From Octopus vulgaris (lineage: Eukaryota), in NCBI GenBank assembly GCA_951406725.2, contig OX597815.1, forward strand, positions 154,938,001 to 155,002,000: a DNA stretch of 64,000 nucleotides. Reading direction: 5' to 3'. Position 1 is the stretch's first letter; each line of letters starts with the position of its first letter. Positions 2,370 through 51,027 of the stretch are shown piece by piece. The notes beneath the pieces are model-generated. The model ran no database searches, was not told the DNA's origin, and saw only the letters and a list, made by a program, of their open reading frames with translations. The translations under genes were made by a program, and so were the position numbers.

Positions 2370-3621
2370 TTTGAGTCACATGTTTATATTCAAAAACCCT
2401 CCATTTCATCTGTATGTAGCAAATCCATAATTTTATACCCTATTTTTTTGGTGGGAGGTTCTGTTGTGATATTTCAATCAGACCATATTGCAGTTTAGTT
2501 AGGGCTCTGGACACTCCAGTTTGTAGTTTTCAAAATGCTTTCTTGACTATCGTAATGTATTACGATAATATTGTTCCTTGTAAATAGTAATATTTGACTA
2601 TATTTGTATGAGTGTTTTATAGTTGCAAAAATATCTTATAGTTTGCCTCACTCATATTCGTCGATTTTGAAAAAGATTTTCGTAGCATCTGCACGTTTTG
2701 CTGTAGCAATTCCCTGTAACGAATTTACATCGTTCGAAAGGCGGCATTGAAACCGTGATCATCTCATCTTTTCTTGAATATTATATTTAGGATTAGTATC
2801 TTCATAAATTTTAAACAATTCTCATTATTACAAGTTCGTGGTAGATGCATCATCGGTTCATAGTAGCTCGTGTATTAAGGGAAAAATTTATCACTTATAA
2901 ATGCAGGTGGCAAATTCTTAGAGTCGCAATAATGATTGTAAATGATATACTACCATTGTTATAGGTAAATGTTATAGCATTATACTTGTAATTTAAATAT
3001 TCATAATAAATGGTGGCTGGTAAAGATATTAGACAAAACATCTTATAAAATATATTTTTAAAGCATAACTCATAGATGTTTCATTTTAAAGATCTTTAAA
3101 TTCTTGCCATTAAATTCTTCCACATGTATACCTGGAATGACAATCGATTGATCTAGTGAAGTAGCATCCAAAATCCACCAAACCACACCCTACATTCTAT
3201 TGGATAATATAGTCCTATAAACACAGGCTCATGAGTAAAACGCCTTTGCTATCCAATGCAGTTATCCTTCTAAATAGTAATAGATACGTTACAGATCTTT
3301 CTTTCTCTGAATATATCCGACAGACGTTTTACAGTCTATACCACGTTAATATTAAGACCATGCAATATGAAAGAATTACATGACAGGTAAAGTGTTAAGA
3401 TTAGAGAAAGCAAAGAAAGTAAAAGAAATAAATATGTATGGCAGCTGCCATTGTATATTACACACTATTTCCTGAAATGCATCGTATCATAGTTGTGCTG
3501 ACTCTGCTATTTCAATTTGCTACAATGACAAATTGAAATGAATGTTGCGTATTATATCAGTGTTCCGAGCAATAAAAATGTCAAATTTCACGGGAATTTA
3601 GTAATATTTAATAATATTATA

Positions 3622-4620
3622 TTCTCATTTCAAATTTTGGTACAAGGCCAGCAGTAATTTCTGGGAGTGGTAAGTCGATTACGTTGATGACAGTGTTCGG
3701 ACCCGAAGAAAGAGAGGCAAAGTCAACCTCTCCGATATTTGAACTCTAAATGCTTAACAGCATTTCGTTCGGCGTACTAACGATTCTGCCAGCTCGCCGC
3801 ATATATCAATGATAATAATAATCCTTTCTACTATAGGTACAAGGCCTGAAATTCGGGGTAGGGGCCTAGTCCATAAGATCGACCTCACTGTTCAACTGGT
3901 ACTTATTTTATTGAACCCGAAAGGAAGAAAGGTAAAGTAAATCTCGGAGGAATTTGAACTCAGATCGATAAAAGAGACGAAATACCTATTTCTTTATTAC
4001 TCACAGAGAGGAAAAACAAGGACAGACAAACGGATTAAGTTGATTATATCGACCCCAGTGCGTAACAGGTACTTATTTAATCAACCCCGAAAGGATGAAA
4101 GGCAAAGTCGACCACGGCGGAATTTGAACTCAGAACGTAACGGCAGACGAAACACCGTTAAGCACTTCGCCAGGCCTGCTAACGATTCTGCTAACTCGCT
4201 GCCTTAATAATAGTAATAATAATAATTCTTTCTACTATCAGTACAAGATCGGAAGTCTGGGGGAAGAGGATAGTCGATTACATCGATCCCAGTGTTTCAC
4301 TGGTACTTAATTTATCGACCCCAAAAGGATAAAAGGCAAAGCCGACTTCGGCAGAATTTGAACTCACAATGTAGCGGCGGACGAAATACCGCTAAGCCTT
4401 CGCCCGGTGTGCTAATGATTCTGTCAACTCGCCGCCTTCAGTAATAGTAATAATAATTCTTTCTTTTATAGGTACATAGGCACAAGGTCTGAAATTTATG
4501 GGGATTGAGTAAAGTCAAGGTCATATCAACCCCAGTGTTCAACTAGTACTTATGTTATCAAATCCGAAAGAATGAAAGGCAAAGTCGGCCTCTGTGGAAT
4601 TTGAACCCAGATCGTAAAGA
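3622..4620 (-). mobile_element. Tandem cluster of ~5 tRNA-derived SINEs (octopus OR-like family)
   Basis: Repeated 'gaaaggcaaagtcgac..ggcggaatttgaactcagaacg...gctaacgattctgccagctcgccgcc', the reverse complement of the 53006 copy; separated by (TAA) runs. Confidence 0.8.
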
Positions 4621-6867: not shown

Positions 6868-7929
6868 CTTATAAATAAGGGCAAAAGAAAAAAACTTTCT
6901 AATGCCAAATATGTCGAAAATAGACACATCGTCAATAACCATATAATTCATCACTATAAACACGCGTCTCGAAGAAAGCCGGCAGAAATTTCTATAAAAT
7001 TCTGTTATTACCATATCGGACCCGATTTCAGAATTAATTCATAAGAACCTTCTCTTTGTCTCAGTGATAAATGCGGCAAAGAAATAAATGAAATACTTAC
7101 TTATACCTATATATATATATAGGACAGACTTCTTTCAAACTGAAAGTATTAGCTCACATTACAATAGAGACGTAATACTGTAATAGTCTAAGAGATAAGA
7201 GATTCCTCTGGGCTCACATTAGGCAAGAAGCTGAAAAGTTTTAGAGCCCATGACACTGCATGGACTTTAAGTAAGCCATGTGTAAAATTTGAATGAAATC
7301 GGTTGTGTAGTTCTCGTGTCCTAGAGATTCACGCAGACACACACACAGACACCCATTCTCATCTGTACATATATATAACCCATTATTTCTATATATTTTA
7401 TATAACCTTTAATCTCACCATATACCTCAATCAGCCCAGCACTATGATATATCGGACTTACACCTCATCTTTAAGAAATTTCGTTAGAAACTATTTTGCC
7501 AATAACTCCTACACTTTTCTAAAGACACAGAATTAAAAAAATATATATAGTTATATAAATGTCAATAGATATAGTTTAAAGGGAAATTAACTTTTCTGAT
7601 TGATATTAATTTTTCGTAGTAGTCCTATGGAAATTTAAGTGAGAGCATTCAAACTATGTTTCATTGTTATCTTTCATAATTTTCAACATTTTTACTGTTT
7701 CATTCGTAAAAGTAATTATTTTTCTCGTTTCAGCAATGTAAATAAATCATTTCAAGCTTAAACATTTACACATATGCTCTTCCACACAGATACACAGACA
7801 CATACACGATATCAGTGATTGTATGTGAGTTTATGTGTGCATCTGTATATGTGTGTGTCTGTGTCTTCGTGTAATACCTGCGTGTTTTAATTAATCACTC
7901 CATACACAATCACACAAACGGAGAGAGAA

Positions 7930-8727
7930 TTGCATGTATATGATAATAATTTTAATAAAATAAAGAATTATAAATATATTTATAATAATGACAATAATAA
8001 TAAGGTTAATAAGAATAAAATTTGGTTAATAGTTCCTTATGGAGATCAAGTAAAAACGAATATTATCAAAGAGATTTTAGATGTTATAGAACTATTTATT
8101 AGAGATAATCGTAAATATAGAAACATTTTCTCTAGTAATAATTTTGGAGTAGGTTATTCTACCACTAATAATGTAGGTAACATTATTTCTTCATTTAATA
8201 AATTTAAACTGAATAATTTTTATAAAAAGAAATTATTTGATAATAATATTAATAATGATAAGACTTATATTAATTGTACTTGTAGAGATAAATCTAATTG
8301 TATATTAAATAATAATTGTGATATTAACGATGTAGTGTATAAATGTATAGTTACATTACATGATAATAACTTTAAGAATAATAATTACCCAAAAGCGGTT
8401 TATATAGGGTCTACTTCCTCAAAAATAAAATTAAGAATCGCACAACATATGAATTCTTTTAAAAATAAAAACTTAATCAACTCAACTGGACTTAGTAAGT
8501 ACATTTGGAGTCTTAAATCACAAAATATTAATTATAGTTTAATTTGGGAAATAATTTGTAAAACTAAATCATATACTATAGGATCTAATTGTTGTTATTT
8601 ATGCTCTAATGAGTTTAAAGAAATTTTATCTTATAAGTATGATAATTTACTTAATACAGGTGAAGAGCGCAAAATAAAATGCAGACATAGGTTACTTTAC
8701 CTATATAATAAGTTTCATGATAAATAA
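7930..8727 (+). pseudogene. C-terminal GIY-YIG endonuclease region of a 5'-truncated Naiad-type Penelope-like element
   Basis: IWLIVPY...CTC(x5)C...VVYKC...VYIGST...STGLSKYIW...CYLCSNE...LLN...CRH; 265-aa open frame with no RT upstream. Confidence 0.85.
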
Positions 8728-10391
8728 CAATAATAGTTCCCTATTAAAGGTTACTTTAGTTTAATTTAGTTTAGAGTATTATATATATTTAGTTATGTAG
8801 TCTAGGCTTTAATTATAGTTAGTCTTTAATTGATATTTCTTTGTTTTAATTAGTTCATTTTTAATGTATATTAATATATAAGTTTATGGTACGTTAAAAC
8901 TTTAATAATTTATATTAGATTTATTTTATTTTCTTTAATTATTTTTTTTAATTTTATTTTATTATGTATTTTTATTATGTATATGTTATAAGTATATTCG
9001 AGGATATATTCTTATGGATGATTGCGTGTATTTAGTGGTGTATATATTGAGTTTTGTATGTATGTGTGAATATTTACGATCCATTTGTATTTTATTGGTA
9101 TGTTGAATTGACAGTTTTTATTTGGGTATTGTCTGTTATAATACACGTTTATATAGATATTTGGTTGATTGTCCGTGAATATGTAGGTATGGGTGTGTAA
9201 GTATGTGTGCGTGTGTACAAGTGCAAGTGTAGATGCGAGAGTGTATGAGTGCTATGTAATTGAGTGGGATTATTTATGCACTTGTATATATGAATGTTTT
9301 GAAAGTGCGTGTGTTTGCACCCGTCTGCGTGTACACACTCATATATAAATATAAATATATTAATATTTATTTACTTTTTTGAAAGACTGTTTCTTATATA
9401 TATGAGTATGTGATGTTATGTGTGAATGTATATTTATATATATATTTTTTAATATATATATATGTTTATGTTTGTATATGTATTGTATTTATTTAATAAT
9501 TTATTGAGTGTGGGAATGAATATATTGGTGTATATATCGAGGTTTGTACGTATGTATATGTTTGTGAGAGTGTGTATATGGTTATGTTTGTGGGTGTGTG
9601 TATATATGTGTGTGTATTTGTGTGTATTGTTTTTTGTTAGGGTTTTATTTGTATGTATGGATTTCATTCATCATGATTATTTTATTTAGAATTTTTTAGT
9701 ATTTTAGTCCCCATGCATTATGGCTTGGTTTGTTGCTCATGGTAGTTTTTAATGGGTATTGTCTTGTAGCCATTTATACGTATATTTATACGTATATTTG
9801 GATGTCTAGGAGAGTGTCCGTGAATATGTATGTTGCATGGGTGTGTGTGTATGTATGCGCGTGTATAAGTGCATGTGTAGATGTGGAAGTGCATGGTGCT
9901 ATGTAAAAGTGTGTGCTTGTGTATGCACTTGTACACATGCATGATTGATGTGCGTGAGATTGCACCCATTTTTAGGGATGTATATGTTTATTTGTCTGTA
10001 TGGGTGTGGGAGTGAATTTTTGGTGTATATATCGAGGTTTATACGTATGTATAGGTATGTGTGAGTGAGGTGGGTATTTGTATATGTCGTGGGTGTGTGG
10101 TTTACGTGTGTGTATTTGTGTTTGAATGTATAGGTTAGGGGGATTGCTATATAGGTTTGTTATAGTGTTTAGTAAAGGGAGGTTTTATCATTATATGTAT
10201 TTATGAGTTTTAGTTTATCATGGTAGTTTTATTAAAGAATTTGTAGTAATTTATGTCTATTTATGATGTTTGTTATTTTATTACATTATTCCATTCATAA
10301 TTTTTAAGTATTGTTAGTTTACCACGTGAATATAATTTTTAATTCCATTTATTCCATTCATTATTTTAAATGACGTTCGTTTCCATAGAGC

Positions 10392-11265
10392 TACGTATGA
10401 GCCTCAATATATACACCGGTCATTCGCTCCCACATCCGTGCGGATGGATGAGCGTATGCATCCTTGAGGGTGGGTGCGGTCTCGCGCGCATCGGTCGTGT
10501 ATGTGTGCAGTTGCGTACACGGTAGTGATGTGTGATCGACTTGAATCTGCGGAGTTTGCTACGAATGTTGGTTGACCATCGTGATGGATGGGGCCCATAT
10601 ACGTGTAGTGATGGGGCTCCCTTTGCCATGCACGATTGTACCTGTGTGGCAGTCTCCATGTGTACATTCGCGCACGGGTATACATGCGTGAGGCACGCGC
10701 GCACGGCATGTGCGTGTGCCCCCTCACATGTATATATGCATGCTTACTGGGCTCGATATGTGCAACAGTGTGTTCGCGCCCGCACTCATGCAGATGGGTG
10801 AATTGCACAACTAAAATACGCACACGTGTGTGTGTGCTATTTTGGTTGTGTAGTTTGTTTATCTGTGTGAGAGTGGGTGTGAGCGTATTGTTGTGTATGT
10901 CGGGTTTGGTACGTATGTATATGGGTGTGTGGGGGGGTGTACGTATGTGTTGTGTGTGTGTGTTTTGCGTATGTGTGTTTGTGTGTGGATGTATATATGG
11001 AGATTACTATGTGGGTGTAATTGTGTATGGTTGGGGGGAGTTTTGTCATTGTATGTGTGTGGGTTTCATTTGTCATGGTAGTTTGTTGGTGATTTGTGGT
11101 AGGTTCTGTATATTTGGGTTGATTATGTATTGTTCTTGTGTGTCCAATTGTATACATGCATGATTGGTGTGCGTGGGATTGCGCCCATTTTTGGGGATGT
11201 ATGTGTTTATTTGTCTGTGTGGGGTGGGAGTGGGTTTTTGGTGTATATACTGAGGTTTATACGTA
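10392..11265 (+). repeat. Cryptic ~430-bp-arm inverted repeat with both arms A-to-G hypermutated
   Basis: Centre CACACGTGTG at 10821-10830; reverse complement of left arm aligns to right arm and to the A-rich sister copy 11862-12165; differences are overwhelmingly A>G on + strand. Confidence 0.9.
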
Positions 11266-12764
11266 TGTATAGGTATGTGTGAGTGAGGTGGGTATTTGTA
11301 TATGTCGTGGGTGTGTGGTTTACGTGTGTGTATTTGTGTGTGAATGTATAGGTTAGGGGGATTGCTATATAGGTATGTTATAGAGTTTAGTAAAGGGAGG
11401 TTTTATCATTATATGTATTTATGAGTTTTAGTTTATCATTGTAGTTTTATTAAAGAATTCGTAGTAATTTATGTCTATTTAAGATGTTTGTTATTTTATT
11501 ACATTATTCCATTCATAATTTTTAAGTAATGTTCGTTTACCACGTGAATATAATTTTTAATTCCATTTATTCCATTTCTCCATTCATAATTTTAAATGAC
11601 GTTCGTTTCCAGAGCGCGAATACTTTTTATACATATGTTAGGTTCCTATGGTAACGTAATTTTGTTTGACGTTTTTAACGGCTAGAGTTTAATTTCACTT
11701 CATAATTTGAAACTGACTTGAAAGTATGTATATTTTTTCTCCTTATGTTAATCTTGTTACTTATGATATTCTGGTTACTTATGAAGTATTTTACATATCA
11801 TATTATGTGTAGTAATGTTGTTTTTCTTTTGAGTGTTTATGTATGTGTGAATGTGTGTGTGTGTGCGTATTTTAGTTGTGTAATTTATTTTTCTGTATGA
11901 GTGTGGGTGTGAAAATATTGTTGTATATATCGAGTTTAGTAAGTATGTATATGTATATGTGAGGGGGTATACGTATATGTTGTGTGTGTGTGTTTTACGT
12001 ATGTATATTTGTGTGTGAATGTGTATATGGGATTGCTATATAGGTGTAATTGTGTATGGTAGAGGCAGTTTTATCATTATATGTATGTGGGTTTCATTTA
12101 TCGTGATGGTTTATTGGTGTTTTGTAGTAGATTCTGTATATGTAAGTTGATTATATATTATTCCATTCATAATTTTTTAAAAAAACGTTCGATCACCACG
12201 TGCAAAGAATTGTTTATTTTGCTTTTGAGTGTTTATGTATGTGTGAATATGTGTGTGTGTGTGGGGGGATTATTTGCGTAATTTATTTCTCTGTATAGAT
12301 GTGGGTGTGAATATATTGGTGTATATATCGAGTTCTGTATGTTTGTATATGTATGTGTGAGCGGGTATACGTATATTGTTTATGAATGTGGGTTGTATGT
12401 GTGTGTGTGGGAGTATGAATAAGTATTGTGTTGAAGTATTTGGCTATTTTATTTATTTATCGTTGCCTAGACGTTTTTATGTGTATGTATAGGGATATAT
12501 ATATAGGTGTGTGAGTTAGTGTATGTATTTAGATATGGTTATATATAATTAGTTATATGTGTATGGGTGTATATATAGTTTATTTTTATTTTGTTTTATA
12601 TTTAATTGTTGATAGGTTTATTTTAGTTTATATATTGATTATATATGGATTATATATAGGTTATATATAGATTATATATTTATATTTTTTCATTGATACT
12701 TTAATTATTTTAAAATTATTTTTTATACTTATATTTTAAAATATTGATATTTTAGATCGGAAAT

Positions 12765-12807
12765 CCACCTGAAGATTGTCGATCAAGACATGAAACAATT
12801 GTAGTGG
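12765..12807 (+). ncRNA. Minimal hammerhead ribozyme motif (canonical core)
   Basis: CCAC-CTGAAGA-T-TGTC-gatcaa-GACA-T-GAAA-CAATTG-TA-GTGG. Confidence 0.85.
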
Positions 12808-12981
12808 CGGTTTTTTTACTTTTTATTAAAATTTTATGTATTGATTAAGTCTTTCCTTGTTTGTTTTGCAAAATAGTGGTTTTGTCTCTAATTAATATTA
12901 TATAATATTTTACTATAAAATTGGATTTAATCCTAAATCTGATTTTTTCCTGTAAATTTGGATTTATTCCCTAATATTTAT

Positions 12982-13018
<37 letters not shown>

Positions 13019-13081
13019 GTATATATATATATACACATACATACATATACATATATATAGGTATATATATATATATATATA

Positions 13082-13132
<51 letters not shown>

Positions 13133-13137
13133 TATAT

Positions 13138-13718
13138 AACCAAGAACGAGAGAACAAATTTCAAAGATCAGTATTCATATTCATATTCACTCAATATAAT
13201 GAAAGCTTCGAAATACTCCACAGCATACATAGGTACATTCATATACACTACATATAAAAAATTAGAAATATATGAATATGTAAAAATACATAAATGTGCT
13301 TGCGAGGTTGTATGTCTGTTTTAACATCAATGAGGATATTAAAATATGCGGATGGTGAATGTATAGCGGTAATCTAAATAGATGAAAAACTTGGTGTAAA
13401 ACAATTTAACATGAATCTTGAGCAGGTGCAAAGTCTGAGAAGATGTATGTTCGTACAGACGAATTAATTCTAATCATAACAATCATCTATATTTCTCTCA
13501 TTAGAGTTGATCTAAAGAATTTATAAAAGAGTGGTTTAAAATCTTAAAGTTTTAAGCAACATGAGAGATTTAAGACACTTTGAGATATATTGAGTGAATA
13601 TGAACACTGAACTTTCAAATTTGTTCTCTCGTTCTTTGGTTTTATATTCCTGAGGCTCTATTAGTGCGCTTTTTAGTTGTGCTGCATAAGGGCATAATTA
13701 TCCCATTTATTTCTTTAT

Positions 13719-14768: not shown

Positions 14769-14947
14769 TATAAAAATTATAAAATTCGAGGAAAATCCTT
14801 ACATTGAATAAAATATATATTGACCTTAATGAAGGAAATATAATTAATACATGGAAATTGAAATTAAAATGTTAAAATGCACTAAAATATTATACGGCAG
14901 TATATATTCATATTAAAGTATACATATATATCAACATACACAGATAT

Positions 14948-16978
14948 ATGCGTGCAAACCACATACATAAAATTAAGGAAAAAATTAAGGAGATTAACAA
15001 CTCGAATAAGATCTTCGTTAATTCTGATAAGATAAGGAACTTATATGCACTTGATAAGGACGTTTATAAGCGCCTGATTTTGAATAGTGTCACAGATACA
15101 TACAAAAAAGATAGCACAAATATATACAAAGAGATAAATTTGGAAGCAAGAGGAATAGCTAACAATCTTAAGATTAGTGATAGGATTGAATATCTTTCCC
15201 CACGACCAGCTTTTATTACGCTAAAAGACCATAAAGCCAATTTTATTAGAAACCCCAAATGTAGATTGATAAATCCGGCTAAAACTGAGATAGGCATTAT
15301 TAGCAAAAATATTTTGGACCGTATTTTAACTAAGTTAGATAGTGAAGTAGACTTGTGAATTTGGAAGAATAGTAAGTCAGTCATAGAGTGGTTTAAAGGT
15401 ATTAGCTATAAGAATAATTGCAGTTTTACACAATTCGATATTATTGACTTTTACCCGTCAATATCTAGGACGTTACTCCTAAGGGCATTGGACTTCGCCA
15501 AGCAGTATATCGGCATCGATAGCTCGGAAATTGATATTATCATGCATGCGAGGAAATCACTTCTTTTTTTCGAGGATTCCACCTATATTAAGAAGAGTGA
15601 GGATTCTCTTTTCGACGGGGCTGTGTTATGTATGCTCATAGGAGCCTTTATCTAAAAATAGAATTCCTATTTATAGATGCAGGTTTATATAGGGATGACG
15701 GCCTTATAGCCACCCATAATTTAAACAGCCATGAATCAGATAGACTTAGGAAGGACCTTATTGCTTTCTTTCAAATGATGGGCTTACGGGTTACAGTAGA
15801 TACTAACCTGAAAAGTGAAGATATTTTAGACGTAAATTTTAATGTAAGGTCGGATAGATTTAAACCTTAACGTAAGCCCAATGACAAGCTATCGTATATT
15901 AGCAAAGATTCGAACCATCCGCCAGTTGTCCTTAGGAACTTAGTCAGCAATGTAGGTAGAAGAATATCTTCAATTTCTTCGGACGATGCAGCATTCCATA
16001 ATGCTGCTCCTTATTACGATAGCGCATTAAGGAATAGTGGATTCTCTGAGAAGATCCAGTACAACCAGCTTAATGCTGATAATAATGCTGCGCTAAGAAC
16101 TAGGACCAGAAAAGTTTTGTGGTTCAACCCGGCTTTCAATTTGGCCGTAAGACTAATATAGGTAGGGAATTTTAAAAATTAGTCTCTAGGCATTTTAAGC
16201 CGGACCATAAATTCTATAGGATATTTAATAGAAGAACCCTGAAGGTTAGTTATTCTTGTTGCAGAAATTTCGCCTCTTACATTAAAACTTAATAAAACTT
16301 AGATATGTTTCGACCAGAGATTGGTCCAGGCCATGTCTAACTTAATAGCACCACCTGATAGGATTATTCGAATCCTGTTTAAGTCAAGTTTTGTTCAAGT
16401 AGTGAGTTCTTGTTGGGTGAGTTGTATCCAGTTTTGTTCAAGTAGTGAGTTCTTGTTGGGTGAGTTGTATCCAATTATGGGTGGCTTGTCTGGTAGCTAG
16501 CATAATAGGAATCTGATTGATATTAAACATGGTGCCGAGCCCATTAAGAAATGCAATTTCAAAAATGAATCCTCCTGTCCGTTGGAAGGGAAATGTCTCG
16601 TAAAAGGGGTAGTTTATAGAGCCAAGGTACAAATAGAAGGCGCACGGAATACAAGACATATACAGGGGCTTCAGAAAATTCGTTTAAAGCGCGATTTTAT
16701 TCGCATAAAAATTCATTTAGATACCCAGAGAATAGGAAGAGGACCAGCCTAGCAAAATATGTCTGGGAACTAAAAGAAAAGGAAACCCCACCTTTCAACG
16801 TGACATGGAGCATTCTGGACAGAGCGGCACCATACAAACATGGAGCACACAAGAATAATTTTAAATGCAATCTTTGCCTGTGAGAGAAACTTTATATTTT
16901 ATTCAAAGACAATAATTCTTTGAATCAAAGAAGTGAGCTTATCAACTTATGCAGGCACGCAACTAAATTTAAAATGTA
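14948..16978 (+). pseudogene. PLE reverse transcriptase/GIY-YIG ORF, disrupted
   Basis: ORF pieces 14948-15358 and 15628-15870 plus in-frame motifs separated by stops/frameshifts. Confidence 0.85.
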
Positions 16979-26012: not shown

Positions 26013-26549
26013 GAGTATATATGTACACTCATACATACAGATACACACATACATACATATATATGCACACAAACATGCATGTGTGCACACATACACAGAC
26101 AGATATATATATATATATATAGGTATATACATATGTGTGTGTATGTGTATGTATGTGTGCATGTATGTATACTCGCATATGCTTGAGCACACACACACGA
26201 ATACACAACACGTAAGGGGAATGCCTTCTACGCGCTAGAATTGATGTATGGATAAGTATCAGAAAGTAAAGCATTATTCATTTATGCAATATATACTTCA
26301 AGTACATTACGTAATATCATATCGTATAACATTATGTCTTCACTACTTTTCCTATATTATACTTCAGTTCACTATACCTGTATAATGCGACACTATCGCA
26401 ACTACATGAACCAACTATGTGGCTTCTGCAGGAATGATCAACTTTTTCCAAATAATTCTATTTCCCTTTTTTAAAAAAAGAAATAAAATTGTATTTGGTG
26501 ATGCAGTCATCGATACGCTGTGGGAATAAAAGACGGTATCTTTCTCTCT

Positions 26550-26958: not shown

Positions 26959-28384
26959 TACACCTACCGCACAGCCACTCCTACGCCTACACCTACCACA
27001 CAACCACTCCTTCGCCTACCCTCAGGTATGCTCACGGTTGAAACAACTTTCACCATTGATCTCCTCAGTCAAAGACGACCCGAAGCTAAACGAACAACAC
27101 CAATATTACACAAACGTGTAGGTGAGTTATGAAACTGATTGCATCAATCAGAATCAATATTTGGTATTTATGCAATTCATTCGAAAGAGTCCTACTCCTA
27201 ATTTAATGTTTAATAACATTACGCGAAAATATCTGCTGTCAAAAAATATTTGTGTATTTCAATTATTCCTAATGTGGCAAACATTGATTGCATGCTAGTA
27301 ACTGGCTTAATATCACTGTATAACGACTTTACATAATCCACAACGTTTTCAATAAGTAGGAGATCCACAACACGATTCTCTTCTGAGCTATTATCGTCAA
27401 GAATACACGCATATACACTGATGAACAAAACGCACACCTTTTAGTCTTACGTTCTCACACTCAAACAAATATCCAGATACACAAACGCAAAATCAAATAT
27501 ATATTTATGCGTATGTGTGTGTGTATGGACTTGTGTATGAATATGTATGCTTTTTACGCTTATCTCCTTTTCACAGAACTGGTATCTTTCCTCACTAGCT
27601 TAGTTTTAATCTTTCTTTCATGTAAAAACGTTTCACACTCGCACACTTGCATGCATAGCCACCTCATCCTTCACATTCCTCATGCGTTCCCACTTGCTTC
27701 TTGTAATTCTTCACCATCGTCTTAACATTCCATCTAACTTCTCAAGATGTTTTTTACGAGTGATTTGTAAGTTTTGAAAGATTTTTCTTTGACTTTTCCT
27801 CTCACATACAACTCTTACCTTCTCTCTTTTTTTTTATTCATTTTTGCTTCTTTTAGTTCAAACTCGCCTTCGTCTTTAAAACTTCTCTCTCTCTACGCTT
27901 GCAGACACATATCAGTCACACATCACATGCACCACAGCTTCCTTGCCTTTCCTGTTTCCTCAAACTCGTGCTATTTCCCACCTCTTCACACTTACACTTT
28001 CTTCACACATGCTGAAGAATTACAGAAGCGTAATATCTCACATCTGACATATATACGGTACTATAACTTCTACACTTGCACACTTCTTCACAGGTACAAG
28101 CACCCTAAAATTAACACATATAACCGCACATATACGCGCTTTCAGACATGTGCTCACTTGTACATGCATACTCGCACATTCCTCACTTACACATTCGTAT
28201 ATATGCACCAAACCCTGCCACCAGGCATTGACAAATATGCATTGCAGAGCTTGCAATAAATTTATTTCGTTGTAATGAATTTATTGCATTCTATTTTTTT
28301 GCAATAAATTAATTGCATTTTTCTTTCTTCGCAATAAATAATTGCAATTAATTGCAATAAATTGCAATGCTCTCCAGAAAAGCC

Positions 28385-31260
28385 CCTTGTAAAACGGTTT
28401 GTCCCCGTTAACAAAGGTGGCCGGATCTACCTCACTCCTACAGGAATCGCTCTCACATCATCTAACCACCGCACTCGGTTTTGGGCGTCCTCTCTCCTCA
28501 CGCCAACCCCCAATCTCCTCCTCCACCTGTTCCCTCCACGTTTTCCTTGTTCGTCCTCGCTTTCGTGGTTCATTCACTCTAAAATCAAGCACTCTCCTCA
28601 AAACATGATCCTCATCCTTCCTCAACACATGTCCATACCACTGTACTCAATTCGCCCTTACAAGATGTTCCACCGATTCCTTCAACCCCAGCATCCCCAT
28701 CAAGTCCTCAGATCTTTTTATCCAATAGTTTCACACCACATATTGCTCTCACTATTGCTTTCTCAGTCCTTCTCAAAACTGCTATTTCACTTTCCTTCAG
28801 ACACCACGTCTCACTCTTATACAGCATTGCAGATCTCCCGCAACTCCGATAAAACCTTCCTTTCATCTTCAAGGAGAACTTTTTCCCACATAATAACGCT
28901 TCGCATTCCCTGAACTTCACCCAGCCAAGTCTCGCTCTTGCTGTCATAGCTGCTTCATATCCACCACTCACATGCACCCTATCTCCCAAATAACAAAACC
29001 CTGCCACCGTTTCCACCTCGTCACATAGCGTTTCCACTGGTTCCGTTAGCCCTCCAGCTCCTTTCTTACATTTTCCACAAATAAAATATCTTTCCAGTCT
29101 TGGAGTCACCTTATTCATTTTCGTACACCTACCATGAATCCATTTTCCAAATTTCGTACACAACATGGCTTTTTGCCGCTACCCTCCTTCCACACACACC
29201 ACATGGATCTACCTTACTAACAGTTCCCCTTCCACCCCGCTCACCATCACTTTTGTCTTTCCGAGGCTTACCTTCAAACCCTTGCTTTCAAACGCCTCCT
29301 TCCATTTCCGAAACTTCTCCCCCAATCCCTCCTTCCTCTCACTCATCAGAACAAGGTCATTCCCATACAGTAACGCCATTATCAATCCCTCTCTTGCACT
29401 CTCCGTCACCACATCAACCACTATTGCAAAAAAATAACGGTGACAACTTCCACTGCAAAACTCCTCTGACAACTCTGATCTGGCTTTACCCCTTCATACA
29501 AACTCATCACTGCCTTCACTATTACCTCCAGTACACCTCTCTTCCTCAATGCCCACTCAATCGCCTTCCTTGGAACCCTATCAAATGCCTTCTTCAGATC
29601 ACCGAAGCACGTGTACAACTCCTCTTTATCTCGGTATACTTCTTGCAATCTCCTTACAATGAACACTGCATCTATTATCCCCTTTACTGGCATAAAACCA
29701 AATTGCCTCACGTCTACATCCACTTTCTTCTGATTTCTCCTCTCCAACACTCTTTTCACAATCCTCATTGCATGTTCCAAAATCTCACTCCCCTATACGC
29801 CCCACAACTCATCGCATCTCCCTTACCCTTGATGATCGGTACCACCATACTTAGTACCCAATCATCTGACATTCCTCTTCCATTCATCACACCCAGGTAG
29901 AGCTCCATTAACACAGGAATCCCTATCTCTCCACTTGCAATTATCATTTCCACACTTACTTCTGATGGACCAGCTGCCTTTTCTGTCTTCATTTCCATCA
30001 TTGCCTCGGCTACTTCTTCCTGACCAACCCTCTCCACAGGCCCCTTCACCACAGCACCTTCTACGCTCTGACCCCATTGATTTTCCTCATTCATAATTCC
30101 TTCCATATGCTCTTTCCAAACTTTCCCCTGTCCTCCTCACTAAAATTCAACCTACCATCACTCTCCCTCATACATCTTCCTCCTTCAAAATCTCTTCCAT
30201 CTTCTTTCATTGGGTTCATCAACCTAAACACTCTATCTGAGTTTTCATCCAATCCACTCAACTTCTCCTCAGCTTGCTTCCTCATAGTTATTATACCTTG
30301 CTTTCATTTGCTCAGTCCTATTATTACATAAAGCTTTGTGCTCCTCCTTCTTCCTCGCTATCGCATTCCTCACCTTCTCATTCCACCGCCACGTATCTCC
30401 TCGATCTCTCCTACCTCTTGTCTTTCCACACACTTCCACATGGCTTTAGTAGCTCTTCCTTAAAAGACTTCCGCAAATTCTCTCTTCACACTTTGCTCTT
30501 ATTTCCTGTTCCTTTCAGTTTCCACACCTTTCTCCTCTCAACCGTCCTCTTTCTCACACACTTTTTGACTTTCTTCTTATCAAAGTCAGCAACCATCAAC
30601 CTGTGCTGCAACTCTCCTCGTATTGTCTTCACAATTCTCAGACACTTTCTGTTGTCTATGCCAACCAACACGAAATCAATCAATCTCATTCCCTCCTGCA
30701 CTGAAAATCACCTTCCTTTTCTCTGTTCTCCTAAACCACGTATTCGCAACACGCAACACCTCATCGTAAAACTTCAACAGTATCCTCCCATCTATATTTC
30801 CTTTCATCAAAAAACCGTTCTTTCTCAGCGATCCCTCTTCGACTTTACGGACCATACCCACAAATCACCCTCATTACTCCTTCCTCAAATTCTAATAATA
30901 CTGTCATCGCTCTGTCACTTTTTCTCTCCACCACCTTCTCACAGATTTCTTCCTTCACCGAAACTCCCACTCCTCCAGTCCCCACCATTTTCCGACTACC
31001 ACAACTCGTACCTTCTTCGCTTGACCCCCCACAAATCTTGCACCTTGACCCTCCACCTAGCCTCCTGCACACAGCACACCTCCTCCTCCTCCTCCTCCTC
31101 CTCCTCCTTCTCCTCCTCAATTCCTCATATACTTCAGTTCCCCTTCAACGTAGACTGCCCACATTCCAACTTTCCAACATCACCCCAAGCTTCTCCTCAG
31201 TCTCGCGGCCATCATAAGGCAAGTTATGCTTGCGAGACCCAGGATAATGGTCTGCACCTT
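28385..31260 (-). mobile_element. RTE-clade LINE (APE + RT), decayed near-full-length
   Basis: GGVGVSVKEE..VICGYGP (APE); QFGFMP..DAVFIVRRLQE..FGDLKKAFDRVPR; LLYGNDLVL (YADD site); Cys/His insert C..WIHGRC..FICGKC; FCYLGD; frameshifts. Confidence 0.9.
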
Positions 31261-31549
31261 CCTTTTTCAGATAGGCTCCTGCAGCCCACTCCAACTTTTA
31301 GTCTGGCTGGTGCCTATGCTTCTTTGCTGTTTCCGTTTTCTTTTTTCTTTAAGTTAGATTTAATTTTGACCGACATCCTTCGCGGTGGGGCACTTCGGTT
31401 CAATCTAGTAGCTGTCAATGCATAGCAAGCTAAGGCTTACATGTGTTTGAGCGCATATATGAATAGATGTATTTGTCTGTCTCTCCCTTTATCTATCATC
31501 TATCTATCTATCTATCTATCAATTTATCTACGTAACTGTCTGTCTCTCA

Positions 31550-36395: not shown

Positions 36396-39300
36396 GCGTT
36401 CTTTACATAGATATGTGTCTGTATGTGGGTGGTGTGGCGTGGTGCATATGTGTGTGTATTTGTGTGTGTGCTGATGTCTGTCAACCTATTTCTGTACATA
36501 TGCGTATGCCTACTTTAAGTGTATCATTCCATATAAGGTTGCTAGCAGATTAATTATAAATTTTAAGCTGACATCGTCTGCTGTTTACATAGAAACGCCA
36601 TCCTGTATTACAGGAGTCAATTGCAAAAGTTTAGAAATGTGTGCTGTCTGTCAATCTACTCCTAGAAACCTAGAAATCTGACTTTCCTATTGTGAAAAAT
36701 CAATGGAATTTTGCCTGTCATTTTATTCTTGGTTGCAGAAAACAATAAAAACATATCAATGAAATTACCTATCCGGTTCCTAATGTGGAAGTATATGGTG
36801 GTTTTTGAAATGGATTGGTTAGAAAATCATTTGTGTTTTGATTCTCAATTTTGGGTTGTTGTTTTTTAATTGATTGTTTGTCAAATGAAAATAGCAAAGC
36901 AGTTAGATGCATTCATTAACTTTGTTATTGGTCGACTGAGGTCATTTATATTCATGTTCTGATGCTCTCTTCAAAATAACGGGCACCACTAATTTCATTT
37001 TAGACGTATTTTAAAGTTTACTATTTAACAATCACCTGACAGAGAAAAAGAAGATAAAACAACTTTCAATCTATCAATCTATCACATGTATCATAACTAT
37101 ATACATTGGTTTCAAGCCTGATCAATAAAACCACTTTCACTGCAATTACCTTCAGTAATTAATCACTGCCTTGGCAACAGCCTGTCATAGAGTAAATTAG
37201 CTGTTAGTTATTCATGAATTAACATTAGTTTTAAGCTTGCTGTCTAATGCCGTTCCGAGTTAGATTTATTTATTGGACGCCACTCGACCTAGAAATGGTT
37301 ATTTAGAATGTTCATTGTATCTCGGCACTATCCATTGATTAAGACTGAACCGGCGAGTCACATTAATTTCCAAGTAATTATCTAATTAAACTCGAAACCT
37401 AAAAGTTAATTGATGTTAAAACTAATATGTTTATATTTTTTAATCTACACAGGAAGGGCTGTGTCCATAAGTGTGAATTGCTTTCCTTGTGGAACTGGTG
37501 TTCTTTAAGTGAGATTAATTCAGTTCATATTAATTTCGAATTACGGAAGTTCAATGACTTAAGAACAATTTGAGTAGAGAACGCAATTCAGAAGAATCTA
37601 TATCTGAAGTGCAGTATCTTGACAAATTGCTTAGTGCGGCATCTAGATGGCGCCATACAATTAGCATGATAGGTATCGGGAAAATCTGGTAGGATGATTT
37701 ATTTATCCCTAGGTTTATTCAAAACATCAACAATGAAATGTGTTATAATCGTGGCCTTCTTGATTATGCTATTATGTTTTGATGAGTAAGGATGACGCGC
37801 TAACTACCAAAACCCTTATTATCCTATGTGTATTTCTTTTTCCTGACGCAAAAAATATATTTCGAGAAATATTTATCCGCAATTTTAAAGTGCGGAGGCA
37901 TTCTGTTCGGTTTGTGAAATGATTCACGTGTTGCAAGACGCTATTAAACAATAGATGAGATAACGGATTGCCTTTTAGTACTTCTAATCGCTAAGTATTC
38001 GGACAAAATTGTGAGCAAGTAAATACTAAAGTCATTCGGACTTGAAATTAAATGCATATTTTTGTATTAATGGCTCACCCTCCACAAAAAGACTACCATA
38101 TTTTCAAGTAACTACCGGGGCCTGTGAATATTTCACGGAATTAATTCCTGTTAATTTTATCCAAAATACCTGAAAGAATAGCCTGTGTTGTGTCAGTACC
38201 AACAGAAAGTAGCTCATATGCTATTCATTGAAAAGTGTAGGAAATTGGAATACGATGATTACATAATACTCTTCATATTCTTTTTCTCTACTTACATGAA
38301 AGCGTTACCGACGGGCTAAGTAATGCAATGACAATACTTATTATAAGAAGTTTAACATAAGCATAAAACTAAGCATATTAGGGTGAAAATTGTTAAATCA
38401 TCTGGAAAGTGGAGATCTCATCTCAAAAACAAAGCTACACCAGAAGTCTTAATGCTGTCGCTCGATCCACGGTAAATAGTAGCCATGTCTCTTTCAAAAT
38501 GCCCCTAACCGTGTTAAATACATTAATATACACTGACGGGAAATCGATAGCGCACGACTACTATAGCCTGTGTCTTTACAATTTTTAAGTGTAGGCTACA
38601 CACACAAACACATGCGCACACACGTATTATACATATGTACATATGTAAATGGGAAAGGTATATATTAATGAAATGACGACATAGAGGACAGGAGGAAAGG
38701 AACAAGGAGATGAAGAAAGAGAAGAATAAAGGAGCATAAGAGTTCACATTTCAACTTAGCCCTAGACAAACGCACACAAATATTGGAAATCCAAACCCTC
38801 CTACTATGGTTAGACAATCTCGCCCACCTAGAATCTACACGCATAACACTCGATCTAGGAACTACCGTAATACTACTACTACCCTAGCCACCTAATACTA
38901 CCCTAGCCACTACCAGCACTACCTCATCTCTCTCTCTCTCTCTCTCCAATTAACTATTGTAGAAGTGATAGCTACAAATGCAGATCTGGTACAGACTGCC
39001 CGCTGCAAGCCCAATGCAGAATATTTAACGTCATATACCAATGTACTGTTTACAACGTAGTAAATAACTCCTATAAATACTACATTGGATCTACCACAAA
39101 ATTTAAACAAAGATATTACGCACACACTCATATATGTGTGTTTGTGCGTGTGGGAATGTATATGTATACACACACACACTCACGCACACATATAAATATA
39201 CATATATGCGCGCCTGGCTATGTGTGCATTTACGTCTCCTAGTCTTGACATCGTGTGATACTAGTAAACGAATGTCATCGTAATAGAATCGGTGTCATTT

Positions 39301-46964: not shown

Positions 46965-47038
<74 letters not shown>

Positions 47039-47882
47039 AAACAAGTCAAAAATAGAAAATGTTAAAATAATTTTATAGTGAACATTTCAGTACCGGTTTC
47101 GGTCATTTTGAGACCTTTTCAACTGTAACGAATAAATAATTAAATTTAGAAAAATTAGAAGAAAAGTTTTTTTAAAGGAATATTTCTATAGTAGTGTTCA
47201 GATATAAGTGGCATTCTGCCTTTCTCTGACACCCTTGTTTGCACTTGTGTGTTGGAGGTCGTTGTGAGTTCTTGGTAGGGTAGTAGAAGAAGAAGGCTGA
47301 TGGGGAAATGGGGTGGGAAAATCTGGGAGTGCCCTGATGGTCGTATTTTGAATGGTCAGTGGCGGCTAGCAGTCGCAGTTCAATTCAGGAGAATATTTCT
47401 ATTGAAAGGCTTCTTTATGGAGTTTGCGTAGGTGTTATACTAAAACACATTAGTGACAAAGTTAAGGGGTAGAAGGTGGAGAAGTAGTAGAAGAAGAAGA
47501 AGAAGAAGAAGAAGAAGAAGAAGAAGAAGAAGAAGAAGAAGAAGAAGAAGAAGAAGAAGAAGATGACGATGATGATGATGATGATGATGAAGAAGAAGAA
47601 GAAGAAGAAGAAGAAGAAGGTGAAGGAGAAGATGATGATGACGATGATGGTGGTGATGATGATGACGACGATGATGATGATAATGATGATGATGAAGAAG
47701 AAGAGGAAGAAGAAGAAAAAACAGAGAAGGGAGAATATGAATGGGTGAAAGTAGTGAGGTGTTGTATGACTTGAAGTTGGCATGTTATGGAGTATAGCTG
47801 TGACTGGGGCTGATTAGTAATGGATTCTTTGGAATGTAATATCTGTGTGTGTATATTTCTTTTATTCTAAAGTTGAGGTATA

Positions 47883-49082
47883 TTAATTGTTTGTCGTAGA
47901 CCCGTTAAGAAGTGGCCTGTATTTTGTAATAAAGAGAGTTTCTTTACTTATTCGTTGTCTCGAGGTTGTATCGTCCCTAAATTGGTAGAGGGGGAAAATC
48001 CTGAAGTTTGGTGTTTTTTTGTTGGCGCAAGTATCTATGTGTTGGCTAAAAGCTATTTTTCTGTTTTGGGGAATTTTTATCTGGGATCTGTGCAGGACCA
48101 TTCGTTTACGCAAACTATTTTTTGTTTGGCCTATGTACTGCTCTTGACACCCGGAGCAGGTTAGTGAGTATATTAGGTTCTCCGAAGCACATGTGAAGTT
48201 GCTTTTCACTGTAAACCGTTGTCCCTGTTTGAAGGAGAACTCTGATCCCTCAATTAGATAGTCGCATATCCCGCAATTGGGTCTTCCACATTTTTTTACT
48301 GTCGGCTTCTGTGTTGAAGAGTGAATTCGGGCTTGTGTTAGGAGACTTTTCATGGATTTAGGCTGTCTCTTGCTTTTTATGATCGTGTGTGTTTGGAGGA
48401 TTGTGTTCATTCTGTGGTCTTTTTTTAGGAGGGGTATGTTGTGGAGGATGGTGCCGAAGGCTTCGTTATTGAGAGGGTTGTGTGTGGAGATGTATGGTAA
48501 GGCTTTTGGTTGTAAGTTTTTCTTTGATTTGGGATGTCTCAGTTCCTTGATGTTAAGTTGAAGGGCACGTTGAATGCACTTGTCAATAAGTGAAGGTGGA
48601 TAGTTCCTGGTGATAAGGGTATCTTTTAGTTCTTGTAGTCGTGTGTCTCTGGTGTTTGCGTTAGAGACTATAGTGCATATCCTTTTTGCTAGATTGAAGG
48701 GGATATTCATCCTGGTGTGTCTAGGGTGGCATGAATTGAATGGAAGATATTGCTTAGAGTCTGTAGGCTTATAATATATGTCTGTTTCTATTATATTATT
48801 AGCTTTCTTAATGAGGATATCGAGGAAGGGGAGTTGTTGCTGGCTATATTCCAGCGTGAATTGGATGTTTACGTCCAGTCCGTTTAAAATTTCCTGAAAT
48901 TCTATGAGTTTTTCTATATTTTTATGCCAAAGAATGAAACAGTCATTTAGATATCTCTTCCAGTTGTTTTCTATGTAGATGGAGAAAGGGCTGCTATATC
49001 TTTCTAGAACCTTACGATACAGACTGATCTCTAGATATCCTATGACTAGGTTGGCAAAGGAGGGGGCCATTCGTGTACCCAT
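47883..49082 (-). CDS. 5'-truncated PLE RT (C-terminal)-GIY-YIG open frame
   Basis: MGTRMAPSFANL, WKRYLNDCF (YLDD to YLND), LPFLD, YYKPTD, LIYSLTC..YIGQT; 399 aa. Confidence 0.8.
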   Translation of the reverse strand: MGTRMAPSFANLVIGYLEISLYRKVLERYSSPFSIYIENNWKRYLNDCFILWHKNIEKLIEFQEILNGLDVNIQFTLEYSQQQLPFLDILIKKANNIIETDIYYKPTDSKQYLPFNSCHPRHTRMNIPFNLAKRICTIVSNANTRDTRLQELKDTLITRNYPPSLIDKCIQRALQLNIKELRHPKSKKNLQPKALPYISTHNPLNNEAFGTILHNIPLLKKDHRMNTILQTHTIIKSKRQPKSMKSLLTQARIHSSTQKPTVKKCGRPNCGICDYLIEGSEFSFKQGQRFTVKSNFTCASENLIYSLTCSGCQEQYIGQTKNSLRKRMVLHRSQIKIPQNRKIAFSQHIDTCANKKTPNFRIFPLYQFRDDTTSRQRISKETLFITKYRPLLNGSTTNN

Positions 49083-49086
49083 CGCA

Positions 49087-50106
49087 GAATTTCAGGAAAT
49101 TTTAAACGGACTGGACGTAAACATCCAATTCACGCTGGAATATAGCCAGCAACAACTCCCCTTCCTCGATATCCTCATTAAGAAAGCTAATAATATAATA
49201 GAAACAGACATATATTATAAGCCTACAGACTCTAAGCAATATCTTCCATTCAATTCATGCCACCCTAGACACACCAGGATGAATATCCCCTTCAATCTAG
49301 CAAAAAGGATATGCACTATAGTCTCTAACGCAAACACCAGAGACACACGACTACAAGAACTAAAAGATACCCTTATCACCAGGAACTATCCACCTTCACT
49401 TATTGACAAGTGCATTCAACGTGCCCTTCAACTTAACATCAAGGAACTGAGACATCCCAAATCAAAGAAAAACTTACAACCAAAAGCCTTACCATACATC
49501 TCCACACACAACCCTCTCAATAACGAAGCCTTCGGCACCATCCTCCACAACATACCCCTCCTAAAAAAAGACCACAGAATGAACACAATCCTCCAAACAC
49601 ACACGATCATAAAAAGCAAGAGACAGCCTAAATCCATGAAAAGTCTCCTAACACAAGCCCGAATTCACTCTTCAACACAGAAGCCGACAGTAAAAAAATG
49701 TGGAAGACCCAATTGCGGGATATGCGACTATCTAATTGAGGGATCAGAGTTCTCCTTCAAACAGGGACAACGGTTTACAGTGAAAAGCAACTTCACATGT
49801 GCTTCGGAGAACCTAATATACTCACTAACCTGCTCCGGGTGTCAAGAGCAGTACATAGGCCAAACAAAAAATAGTTTGCGTAAACGAATGGTCCTGCACA
49901 GATCCCAGATAAAAATTCCCCAAAACAGAAAAATAGCTTTTAGCCAACACATAGATACTTGCGCCAACAAAAAAACACCAAACTTCAGGATTTTCCCCCT
50001 CTACCAATTTAGGGACGATACAACCTCGAGACAACGAATAAGTAAAGAAACTCTCTTTATTACAAAATACAGGCCACTTCTTAACGGGTCTACGACAAAC
50101 AATTAA
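49087..50106 (+). CDS. Inverted duplicate of PLE RT-thumb/GIY-YIG frame
   Basis: Identical translation to the 47883 ORF from EFQEILNG onward. Confidence 0.75.
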   Translation, partial: EFQEILNGLDVNIQFTLEYSQQQLPFLDILIKKANNIIETDIYYKPTDSKQYLPFNSCHPRHTRMNIPFNLAKRICTIVSNANTRDTRLQELKDTLITRNYPPSLIDKCIQRALQLNIKELRHPKSKKNLQPKALPYISTHNPLNNEAFGTILHNIPLLKKDHRMNTILQTHTIIKSKRQPKSMKSLLTQARIHSSTQKPTVKKCGRPNCGICDYLIEGSEFSFKQGQRFTVKSNFTCASENLIYSLTCSGCQEQYIGQTKNSLRKRMVLHRSQIKIPQNRKIAFSQHIDTCANKKTPNFRIFPLYQFRDDTTSRQRISKETLFITKYRPLLNGSTTNN

Positions 50107-50846
50107 TATACCTCAACTTTAGAATAAAAGAAATATACACACACAGATATTACATTCCAAAGAATCCATTACTAATCAGCCCCAGTCACAGCTATACTCC
50201 ATAACATGCCAACTTCAAGTCATACAACACCTCACTACTTTCACCCATTCATATTCTCCCTTCTCTGTTTTTTCTTCTTCTTCCTCTTCTTCTTCATCAT
50301 CATCATTATCATCATCATCGTCGTCATCATCATCACCACCATCATCGTCATCATCATCTTCTCCTTCACCTTCTTCTTCTTCTTCTTCTTCTTCTTCTTC
50401 TTCTTCATCATCATCATCATCATCATCAACATCGTCATCTTCCTCTTCTTCTTCTTCTTCTTCTTCTTCTTCTTCTTCTTCTTCTACTTCTCCACCTTCT
50501 ACCCCTTAACTTTGTCACTAATGTTTTTTTAGTATAACACCTACGCAAACTCCATAAACAAGCCTTTCAATAGAAATATTCTCCTGAGTTGAACTGCGAC
50601 TGCTAGCCGCCACTGACCATTCAAAATATGACCATCAGGGCACTCCCAGATTTTCCCACCCCCTTTCCTCATCAGCCTTCTTCTTCTACTACCCTACCAA
50701 GAACTCACAACGACCTCCAACACACAAGTGCAAACAAGGGAGTCAGAGAAAGGCATAATGCCACTTATATCTGAACACTACTATAGAAATATTCCTTTAA
50801 AAAAACTTTTCTCCTAATTTTTCTAAATTTAATTATTTAATCGTTA

Positions 50847-50884
50847 CAGTTGAAAAGGTCTCAAAATGACCGAAACAGGTACTG
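50847..50884 (+). ncRNA. Hammerhead motif with U3:A8 core (twin at 47088-47125, minus)
   Basis: CAG-TTGAAAA-GGTC-tcaaaat-GACC-GAAA-C(C/A)GG-TA-CTG. Confidence 0.75.
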
Positions 50885-50971
50885 AAATGTTCATTATAAA
50901 ATTATTTTAGCATTTTCTATTTTTGACTTGTTTTTTCATATATATCAACTCGTGTGTTCCTTTTCACCCTT

Positions 50972-51027
<56 letters not shown>

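Follow-up and report, generated by a model that had tools for sequence, protein, structure and literature searches.

ADAR-type A-to-G changes fixed in the genomic copies of a Penelope-like retrotransposon of Octopus vulgaris

ADAR-type A-to-G hypermutation has been described for avian retroviruses in culture, namely Rous-associated virus as well as avian leukosis virus, in work that a review (PMC12925331) credits to Hajjar & Linial 1995 and Felder 1994. As at the octopus locus reported here, an inverted repeat is involved, nearly 50% of A is changed to G and the changes are fixed by reverse transcription; the same review gives editing of up to about half of a long duplex's adenosines as the benchmark of ADAR hyper-editing. 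The avian viruses are exogenous, whereas the octopus element is an endogenous, non-viral retrotransposon with apparently germline-fixed changes, and, as far as the review describes the avian cases, the octopus family differs from them in its family-wide inheritance, repeated rounds and switch of polarity. Editing of endogenous retroelements by APOBEC3 (PMC2873906) is similar in that a host deaminase leaves clusters of a single substitution type. There, however, the change is G>A resulting from C>U on cDNA and pairing is not needed, whereas the octopus changes are sense-strand A>G confined to a duplex. The third related phenomenon is ADAR hyper-editing of inverted repeats in transcriptomes (PMC5625713), which shares with our case the long duplex, the clustered A>G and the depletion of G upstream of the edited base, but alters RNA only, while the edits described here sit in the genome. 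According to the same study the upstream-G depletion is a motif shared by ADARs across metazoans, the preferred 3′ neighbour is A in invertebrates and G in mammals, and octopus is among the heaviest hyper-editors. The question of fixation has been named as open for Alu in a review (PMC4982230). Full-text searches covering mainly the openly available literature turned up no case in which ADAR edits had become fixed and were passed on in an endogenous or germline retrotransposon family; the accessible text of the description of Hydra-clade Penelope-like elements (PMC8557442) makes no mention of editing, and a term search of the available text of a retrozyme preprint returned no mention of ADAR.

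The window, that is the whole stretch of 64,000 nucleotides of O. vulgaris DNA analysed here, carries between 7940 and ~12997 a 5′-truncated Penelope-like element (PLE), the match of which to two full copies (L068 and L070) starts at 7940. In its 3′ region this young, Hydra-type element contains a 430-bp inverted repeat at 10392-11265 (Table 1). Judged by its motifs against the published description (PMC8557442) the element is probably a Hydra-clade PLE. The 840-aa ORF of L068 has RT and C-terminal GIY-YIG-type motifs (YRDD at 359, VVY at 710, YIG at 733) together with D128-K129-T130, C691/C693/C699, C797/C800, E803, N817 and C826/H828; the single RT + GIY-YIG-type ORF, the DKT, CxCX5C, CxxC and CxH motifs and the absence of an internal CCHH fit that description. 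The N-terminal RWK motif reads RWK in the consensus of the relatives and KWK in the 840-aa ORF. Searches of Pfam, NCBIfam and PDB with this ORF returned nothing useful, and Pfam applied to 23 aligned ORF relatives gave RVT_1 in one and a weak GIY-YIG in one. Further likenesses to the Hydra clade as described are a hammerhead, tandem and inverted pLTRs and a (TA)n target: architectures of the family copies include partial tandem and inverted pLTRs, and the (TA)n target is seen at the 3′ end of one copy, that of the window. Hydra-clade members are generally <3 kb, whereas the octopus family has a repetitive 3′ region of 4-5 kb with edited hairpins. The putative hammerhead follows the order stem I, CUGAnGA core, stem II, GAAA and short stem III, and is kept over family copies and older subfamilies. 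The motif at 12765-12807 had no Rfam match and MFE folding did not produce the hammerhead fold; Rfam over 7500-13200 gave just sub-threshold miRNA-like matches and no hammerhead. Minimal hammerhead motifs of unrelated repeats were also seen in the flanks of four other loci (L054, L072, L077 and L084). The family is young, many copies being 96-98% identical in the ORF end and several having open frames of 820-860 aa.

Table 1 Features of the PLE copy in the window, in window coordinates
Feature	Coordinates	Strand	Remarks
5′-truncated PLE ORF	7940-8727	+	linker Zn motif and GIY-YIG-type endonuclease end; sets + as the sense strand
PLE 3′ region, G/T-rich repeat units	8728-10390	+	A>G 0/207, 0/80, 2/29 and 0/86 vs L070
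Near-unedited sister units	9912-10046 and 10047-10390	+	within the PLE 3′ region
Left arm	10392-10825	+	inverted copy of two family units; 105/191 ancestral adenines now G
Right arm	10826-11265	+	direct copy of the left arm's two units; 51/107 ancestral adenines now G
Unit just outside the stem	11267-11611	+	A>G 0/84; marks the editing edge
Sister of the right arm	11855-12165	+	lightly A>G biased (8/78); alternative partner for the left arm
Putative minimal hammerhead-ribozyme motif of the pLTR	12765-12807	+ (sense)	read from sequence
3′ end of the insertion	12808-12997	+	matches L068 pLTR and leader to 12997; runs into a (TA)n microsatellite

An earlier note on this DNA had described the two arms as mutually reverse complementary, and alignment confirmed it: the reverse complement of 10392-10825 matches 10826-11265 end to end, around the centre CACACGTGTG (10821-10830). 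The mismatches between the arms are strongly one-sided. In terms of + strand RNA, 53 A/G and 106 C/T mismatches form G·U pairs and only 1 G/A and 1 T/C do not, i.e. 159 transition mismatches are of the G·U type and 2 of the A·C type, and the longest perfect Watson-Crick run between the arms is 10 bp. Only the + strand RNA of 10380-11280 is predicted to fold as one stem, by means of G·U pairs (154 of 418), at -566 kcal/mol (z -26 vs 20 shuffles), and the - strand gives a branched structure of -224 kcal/mol, as the note had foreseen. Since both the ORF and the hammerhead motif lie on the + strand, the edited strand corresponds to the RNA of the element.

The hairpin-free copy L070, 99.3% identical to the window copy in the ORF end, served as the reference for the first round of changes. 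Relative to it G has replaced 156 of the 298 adenines of the stem (52%; 105 in the left and 51 in the right arm) on the PLE sense strand, as opposed to T>C at 2 of 301 positions (Fisher p 2e-56), with 4 G>A and 5 C>T; the G>A clusters expected of an APOBEC-edited retroelement are absent. Outside the stem A>G was found at 12 of 1142 adenines, 10 of them in two sister units able to pair with the left arm. Comparisons inside the window agree with the excesses formerly counted by eye: going from the sister at 11855-12165 to the right arm there are 35 A>G and 4 G>A (9 and 0 from the sister at 9905-10046), and going from the sisters to the reverse complement of the left arm 74 T>C with no C>T and 29 T>C with 1 C>T. 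The unit at 11855-12165, used before as the sister for comparison, has mostly kept A but is not fully clean with respect to L070 (8/78 A>G). The skew does end at the edge of the hairpin, 10047-10385 and 11266-11611 differing by 9 substitutions with no A>G among them.

Polarity might in principle be read the other way round, with G/C ancestral in the stem and the sisters decayed by C>T through methyl-CpG or a cytidine deaminase. When only the two arms are compared, A>G and C>T are indistinguishable, and sense-strand C>T is frequent in the family. Yet L070, the window's own sisters and, for one unit, the older copy L077 used as a second outgroup all have A, so that A is ancestral and G derived, as proposed; the stem has no more than 5 C>T and 4 G>A; and the later rounds of change described below, polarised by another copy (L026), accumulate along the tree. 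The outgroups have already refuted the reversed polarity, to which we attach practically no weight.

The preferred sequence context was less simple than the previously suggested TA>TG. The edited fraction amounted to 0.63 after A, 0.58 after U, 0.44 after C and 0.31 after G, the bias thus consisting in depletion of upstream G (chi-square p 0.012) and not mainly in TA>TG; by the 3′ neighbour it was 0.71 for G and 0.67 for A. As to the host enzyme, the A_deamin domain (PF02137) scored over the cut-off at 4 genomic places, and one of the exons found is 100% identical to the O. vulgaris double-stranded RNA-specific editase 1 (ADAR2-type, with dsRBDs).

The left arm had 195 genomic candidates, of which 40 were scored: 5 full long-arm copies including that of the window, 1 fragment and 34 copies that have short arms and a gap of 141 nt. 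The sample of copies consisted of 37 stretches taken by matches to the arms and 20 taken by matches to the ORF, and three architectures were distinguished: hairpin-free (L070), hairpin oriented as in the window (the window, L021-L024 and the short-arm copy L026) and cassette turned round with respect to the ORF (41 loci). Comparison of shared and private edits, as the earlier note had suggested, showed that the five long-arm copies bear 156-163 edits each and have 141 of 175 edited sites in common, therefore they have been inherited from one edited ancestral master. The earlier proposal that the transcript folded, was edited and was reinserted was supported by the tests of polarity, ancestral state, confinement to the stem, sense strand, element type, host clade and presence beyond the assembly, except that the edits were not made for the window locus and reached it by inheritance. 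Neither a balanced spectrum, nor ancestral G, nor a bias reaching beyond the stem, nor absence from genomic reads, all named beforehand as grounds for rejection, was encountered.

Long G/T-rich palindromes are hard to assemble, and the hairpin might be suspected of being an artefact of assembly or sequencing, e.g. of edited cDNA reads in the assembly. The left arm, however, is present at many loci on different chromosomes, each with its own flanks, and with shared variants. The hairpin is also found beyond the assembly: in three runs, each belonging to a different study, contigs cover all 30 bins of the stretch, two of the runs being guessed to be DNA, one of unknown kind and one possibly the source of the assembly itself, and these contigs hold left-arm pieces of 210-304 nt with few other letters. 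An artefact is hardly credible.

Later rounds of change are recorded in the inverted-cassette subfamily, where one of the units left unedited in the window has been inverted and has acquired partners downstream. Of the 41 loci, the 36 that gave long collinear alignments were used (L036, L043, L054, L055 and L087 were dropped) and polarised by L026, a direct-orientation copy. On the sense strand of the ORF, the 35 of 36 copies that cover the new tract have G in place of 34-53 of ~105 adenines, as against 0-1 T>C; in the old orientation of the cassette this is a T>C change. The polarity, opposite relative to the cassette and the same relative to the ORF, therefore follows the transcript and not the sequence. 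The changes also follow pairing. Sites with G in at least two copies made up 73/105 in the new tract, 21/57 in its downstream partner and 0/16 in the adjoining unpaired part; in the inverted right arm they made up 20/60 and 25/87 in the partnered parts and 0/61 in the partnerless middle, while the ORF and the UTR had 2/316 and 1/112. The edited fraction was 0.12 after G (p 8e-9) against 0.23-0.58 for other 5′ neighbours, and 0.45, 0.44 and 0.28 before A, C and G, respectively (p 0.09). ADAR prefers A opposite C; A opposite C was edited in 16/43 against 9/37 cases, not a significant difference (p 0.24), in a comparison where the true partner may be a downstream unit. In the run X1 the loose end after the centre (at window 10837) is similar to the inverted subfamily's right arm, though with still more changes, and is possibly a further edited variant under another organism label.

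These data bear on deamination of adenine in DNA, either by ADAR editing the DNA strand within an RNA:DNA hybrid, a substrate on which ADARs act in vitro (PMC12925331), or by an unknown process directed to palindromes. Had the cDNA been edited, the sense strand would show T>C, the reverse of the change observed, and a hybrid would not end at the limits of intramolecular pairing. Moreover, palindromes kept in DNA since insertion are unbiased: the locus-specific inverted repeats made at insertion are ~99% identical with balanced mismatches, 50 of the G·U type and 48 of the A·C type over 30,269 columns (best matches, 32 loci). This control comprised matches of at least 93% identity, some of them in repeats outside the family, so heavily changed palindromes are beyond its range and it shows that unbiased ones are common. 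We consider deamination at the DNA level extremely unlikely, and editing of the sense RNA remains the preferred reading.

The gains were mapped on a tree of 26 copies, in the making of which the edited columns were left out, with support of 74-96 for the early nodes. On it A>G was gained 283 times, at 171 sites of which 76 gained it repeatedly, vs 14 T>C gains. As many as 249 of the A>G gains fall on early branches (length 0.066) and 34 on late ones (0.159), arriving in bursts of 20-38 per branch that then stop, whereas C>T changes are proportional to branch length (33 early, 104 late). Seven early copies have only 16 of 68 tract edits in common and are mutually non-nested, and together with the burst-like gains this indicates that bursts of editing affected independent transcripts and came to an end near half. 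Among singletons in the duplex regions, polarised by majority, A>G showed a weak excess over T>C (29/324 vs 27/449, p 0.12). Near the centre, the sequence of the inverted right arm approaches that of the left arm in L008 (1861-2190), L031, L039 and later copies, and in these copies new editing at A·C mismatches is indistinguishable from arm-to-arm conversion.

A>G might also arise with no deaminase, if the PLE RT or an RNA polymerase misread A as G on a double-stranded template, and other sense-strand-biased changes do occur in the family. In the inverted-cassette copies (e.g. L029:4378-5370) C>T reaches 0.21 per base vs 0.022 for G>A, A>T 0.072 vs 0.021 for its complement, and C>A 0.059 vs 0.025. 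These changes, however, ignore the partner and grow in step with branch length, unlike the A>G gains, which arrive in bursts and come to a halt, and both the 5′-G depletion and the plateau near half fit ADAR; misreading is accordingly a very unlikely source of the A>G tracts. The sense C>T occurs regardless of pairing (13 of the 48 C of the segment that has no partner), mostly outside CpG and in a clock-like manner. Its excess implies that replication of the family is itself asymmetric, and it may explain the C-poor, G/T-rich sense strand. Candidate causes are deamination of RNA or of a single strand and polymerase error; reversion or gene conversion was not supported, as the change is similar at edit-derived and ancestral C (12/46 vs 21/101, right arm).

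In a scan for wobble-biased inverted repeats, neither the 10 copies examined of a second PLE family nor 10 older-subfamily copies showed a real masked hairpin, and the 5 candidate loci inspected were all low-complexity (TG/TA) false positives. The A>G excess seen in L078 and L082 was an artefact of aligning non-homologous unit tails. The second family, which has a GIY-YIG match and many 784-aa ORFs in the genome, is present in the window as an inverted duplication (46968-48903 and 49086-51016), 97% identical, with 7 vs 3 wobble-type mismatches, i.e. an unedited palindrome. Wobble-biased inverted matches of 50 nt at 26030-26133 and 12234-12283/13696-13745 are probably chance matches of low complexity. 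Elsewhere in the window, ORF fragments at 1227-1667, 14876-15358 and 38907-39242 resemble PLE RT/GIY-YIG ends by eye (Pfam gave nothing for the first two), the - strand of 28338-31425 has what look by eye like broken LINE-like reverse transcriptase fragments, and upstream of the PLE, at 3600-4620, there are tandem SINE-like repeat copies, which we take to be the tRNA-like ones typical of octopus.

We put at roughly 0.9 the probability that ADAR hyper-edited the sense RNA of the PLE and that the PLE RT fixed the edits in DNA, over several rounds. The signature of the changes suggests inosine as the intermediate and ADAR as the enzyme; the RT of the element would be the copier, insertion would have taken place in the germline, and fold-back would have preceded the editing. 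An exact-pattern search for the unedited palindromic centre of such a precursor gave 0 matches, which is no proof of its absence. In the proposed mechanism a family copy would have gained a fold-back inverted duplication in its 3′ region, the sense transcript of which would form an RNA duplex of ~430 bp, and the host ADAR would have deaminated about half of the adenosines in both arms. The RT of the element would then have read inosine as G, and the edited copy would have been inserted in the germline, where it would have become a master whose descendants inherit the pairing of the stem as RNA through G·U and are no longer palindromes as DNA. Later the cassette was probably inverted relative to the ORF and formed new duplexes, and several further cycles of editing and retrotransposition would have followed, by the end of which the new stems, too, were edited to about one half. 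Reading of inosine as G is stated for RT-PCR (PMC5224506), and PLE insertion, by the mechanism described for these elements, often makes inversions (PMC8557442, PMC11167929). Against ADAR counts the report, in the first of these papers, that human L1 RNA is not edited by ADAR1. The failure to find an unedited precursor, the 3′-neighbour preferences that differ between the first and the later rounds, the non-significant preference for A opposite C, the weak excess among singletons and the lack of masked hairpins in the sampled copies of the second PLE family and of the older subfamilies also speak against the proposal, as does the second strand-biased process of the family, the sense C>T, although the latter is indifferent to pairing and clock-like.

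If this reading is right, RNA edits have repeatedly become heritable germline DNA mutations in an octopus retrotransposon, and the family offers a natural dated series, leading from a hairpin-free ancestor through the first edited hairpin, the inversion and further rounds to a plateau. It would imply that ADAR is active on retrotransposition-competent RNA in the octopus germline or early embryo, that the PLE RT is able to copy long duplex RNA rich in inosine, and that the lineage was not brought to an end by editing. A method of search suggests itself as well, directed to inverted repeats masked by G·U mismatches of one strand, which ordinary palindrome and repeat finders miss. A bolder extension, which we find rather doubtful, is that ADAR is a heritable mutagen of the octopus germline retrotransposons and that the family profits from it, edited lineages outcompeting unedited ones. 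Editing would convert perfect palindromes, which are dangerous, into stems masked by G·U, which as DNA would be stable and might evade dsRNA pathways or put them to use. The twice-edited cassette was present in 12 of 13 stretches chosen for long, high-identity ORFs, two of which overlap. Should the family indeed profit in this way, masked hairpins across genomes would constitute a datable fossil record of germline RNA editing.
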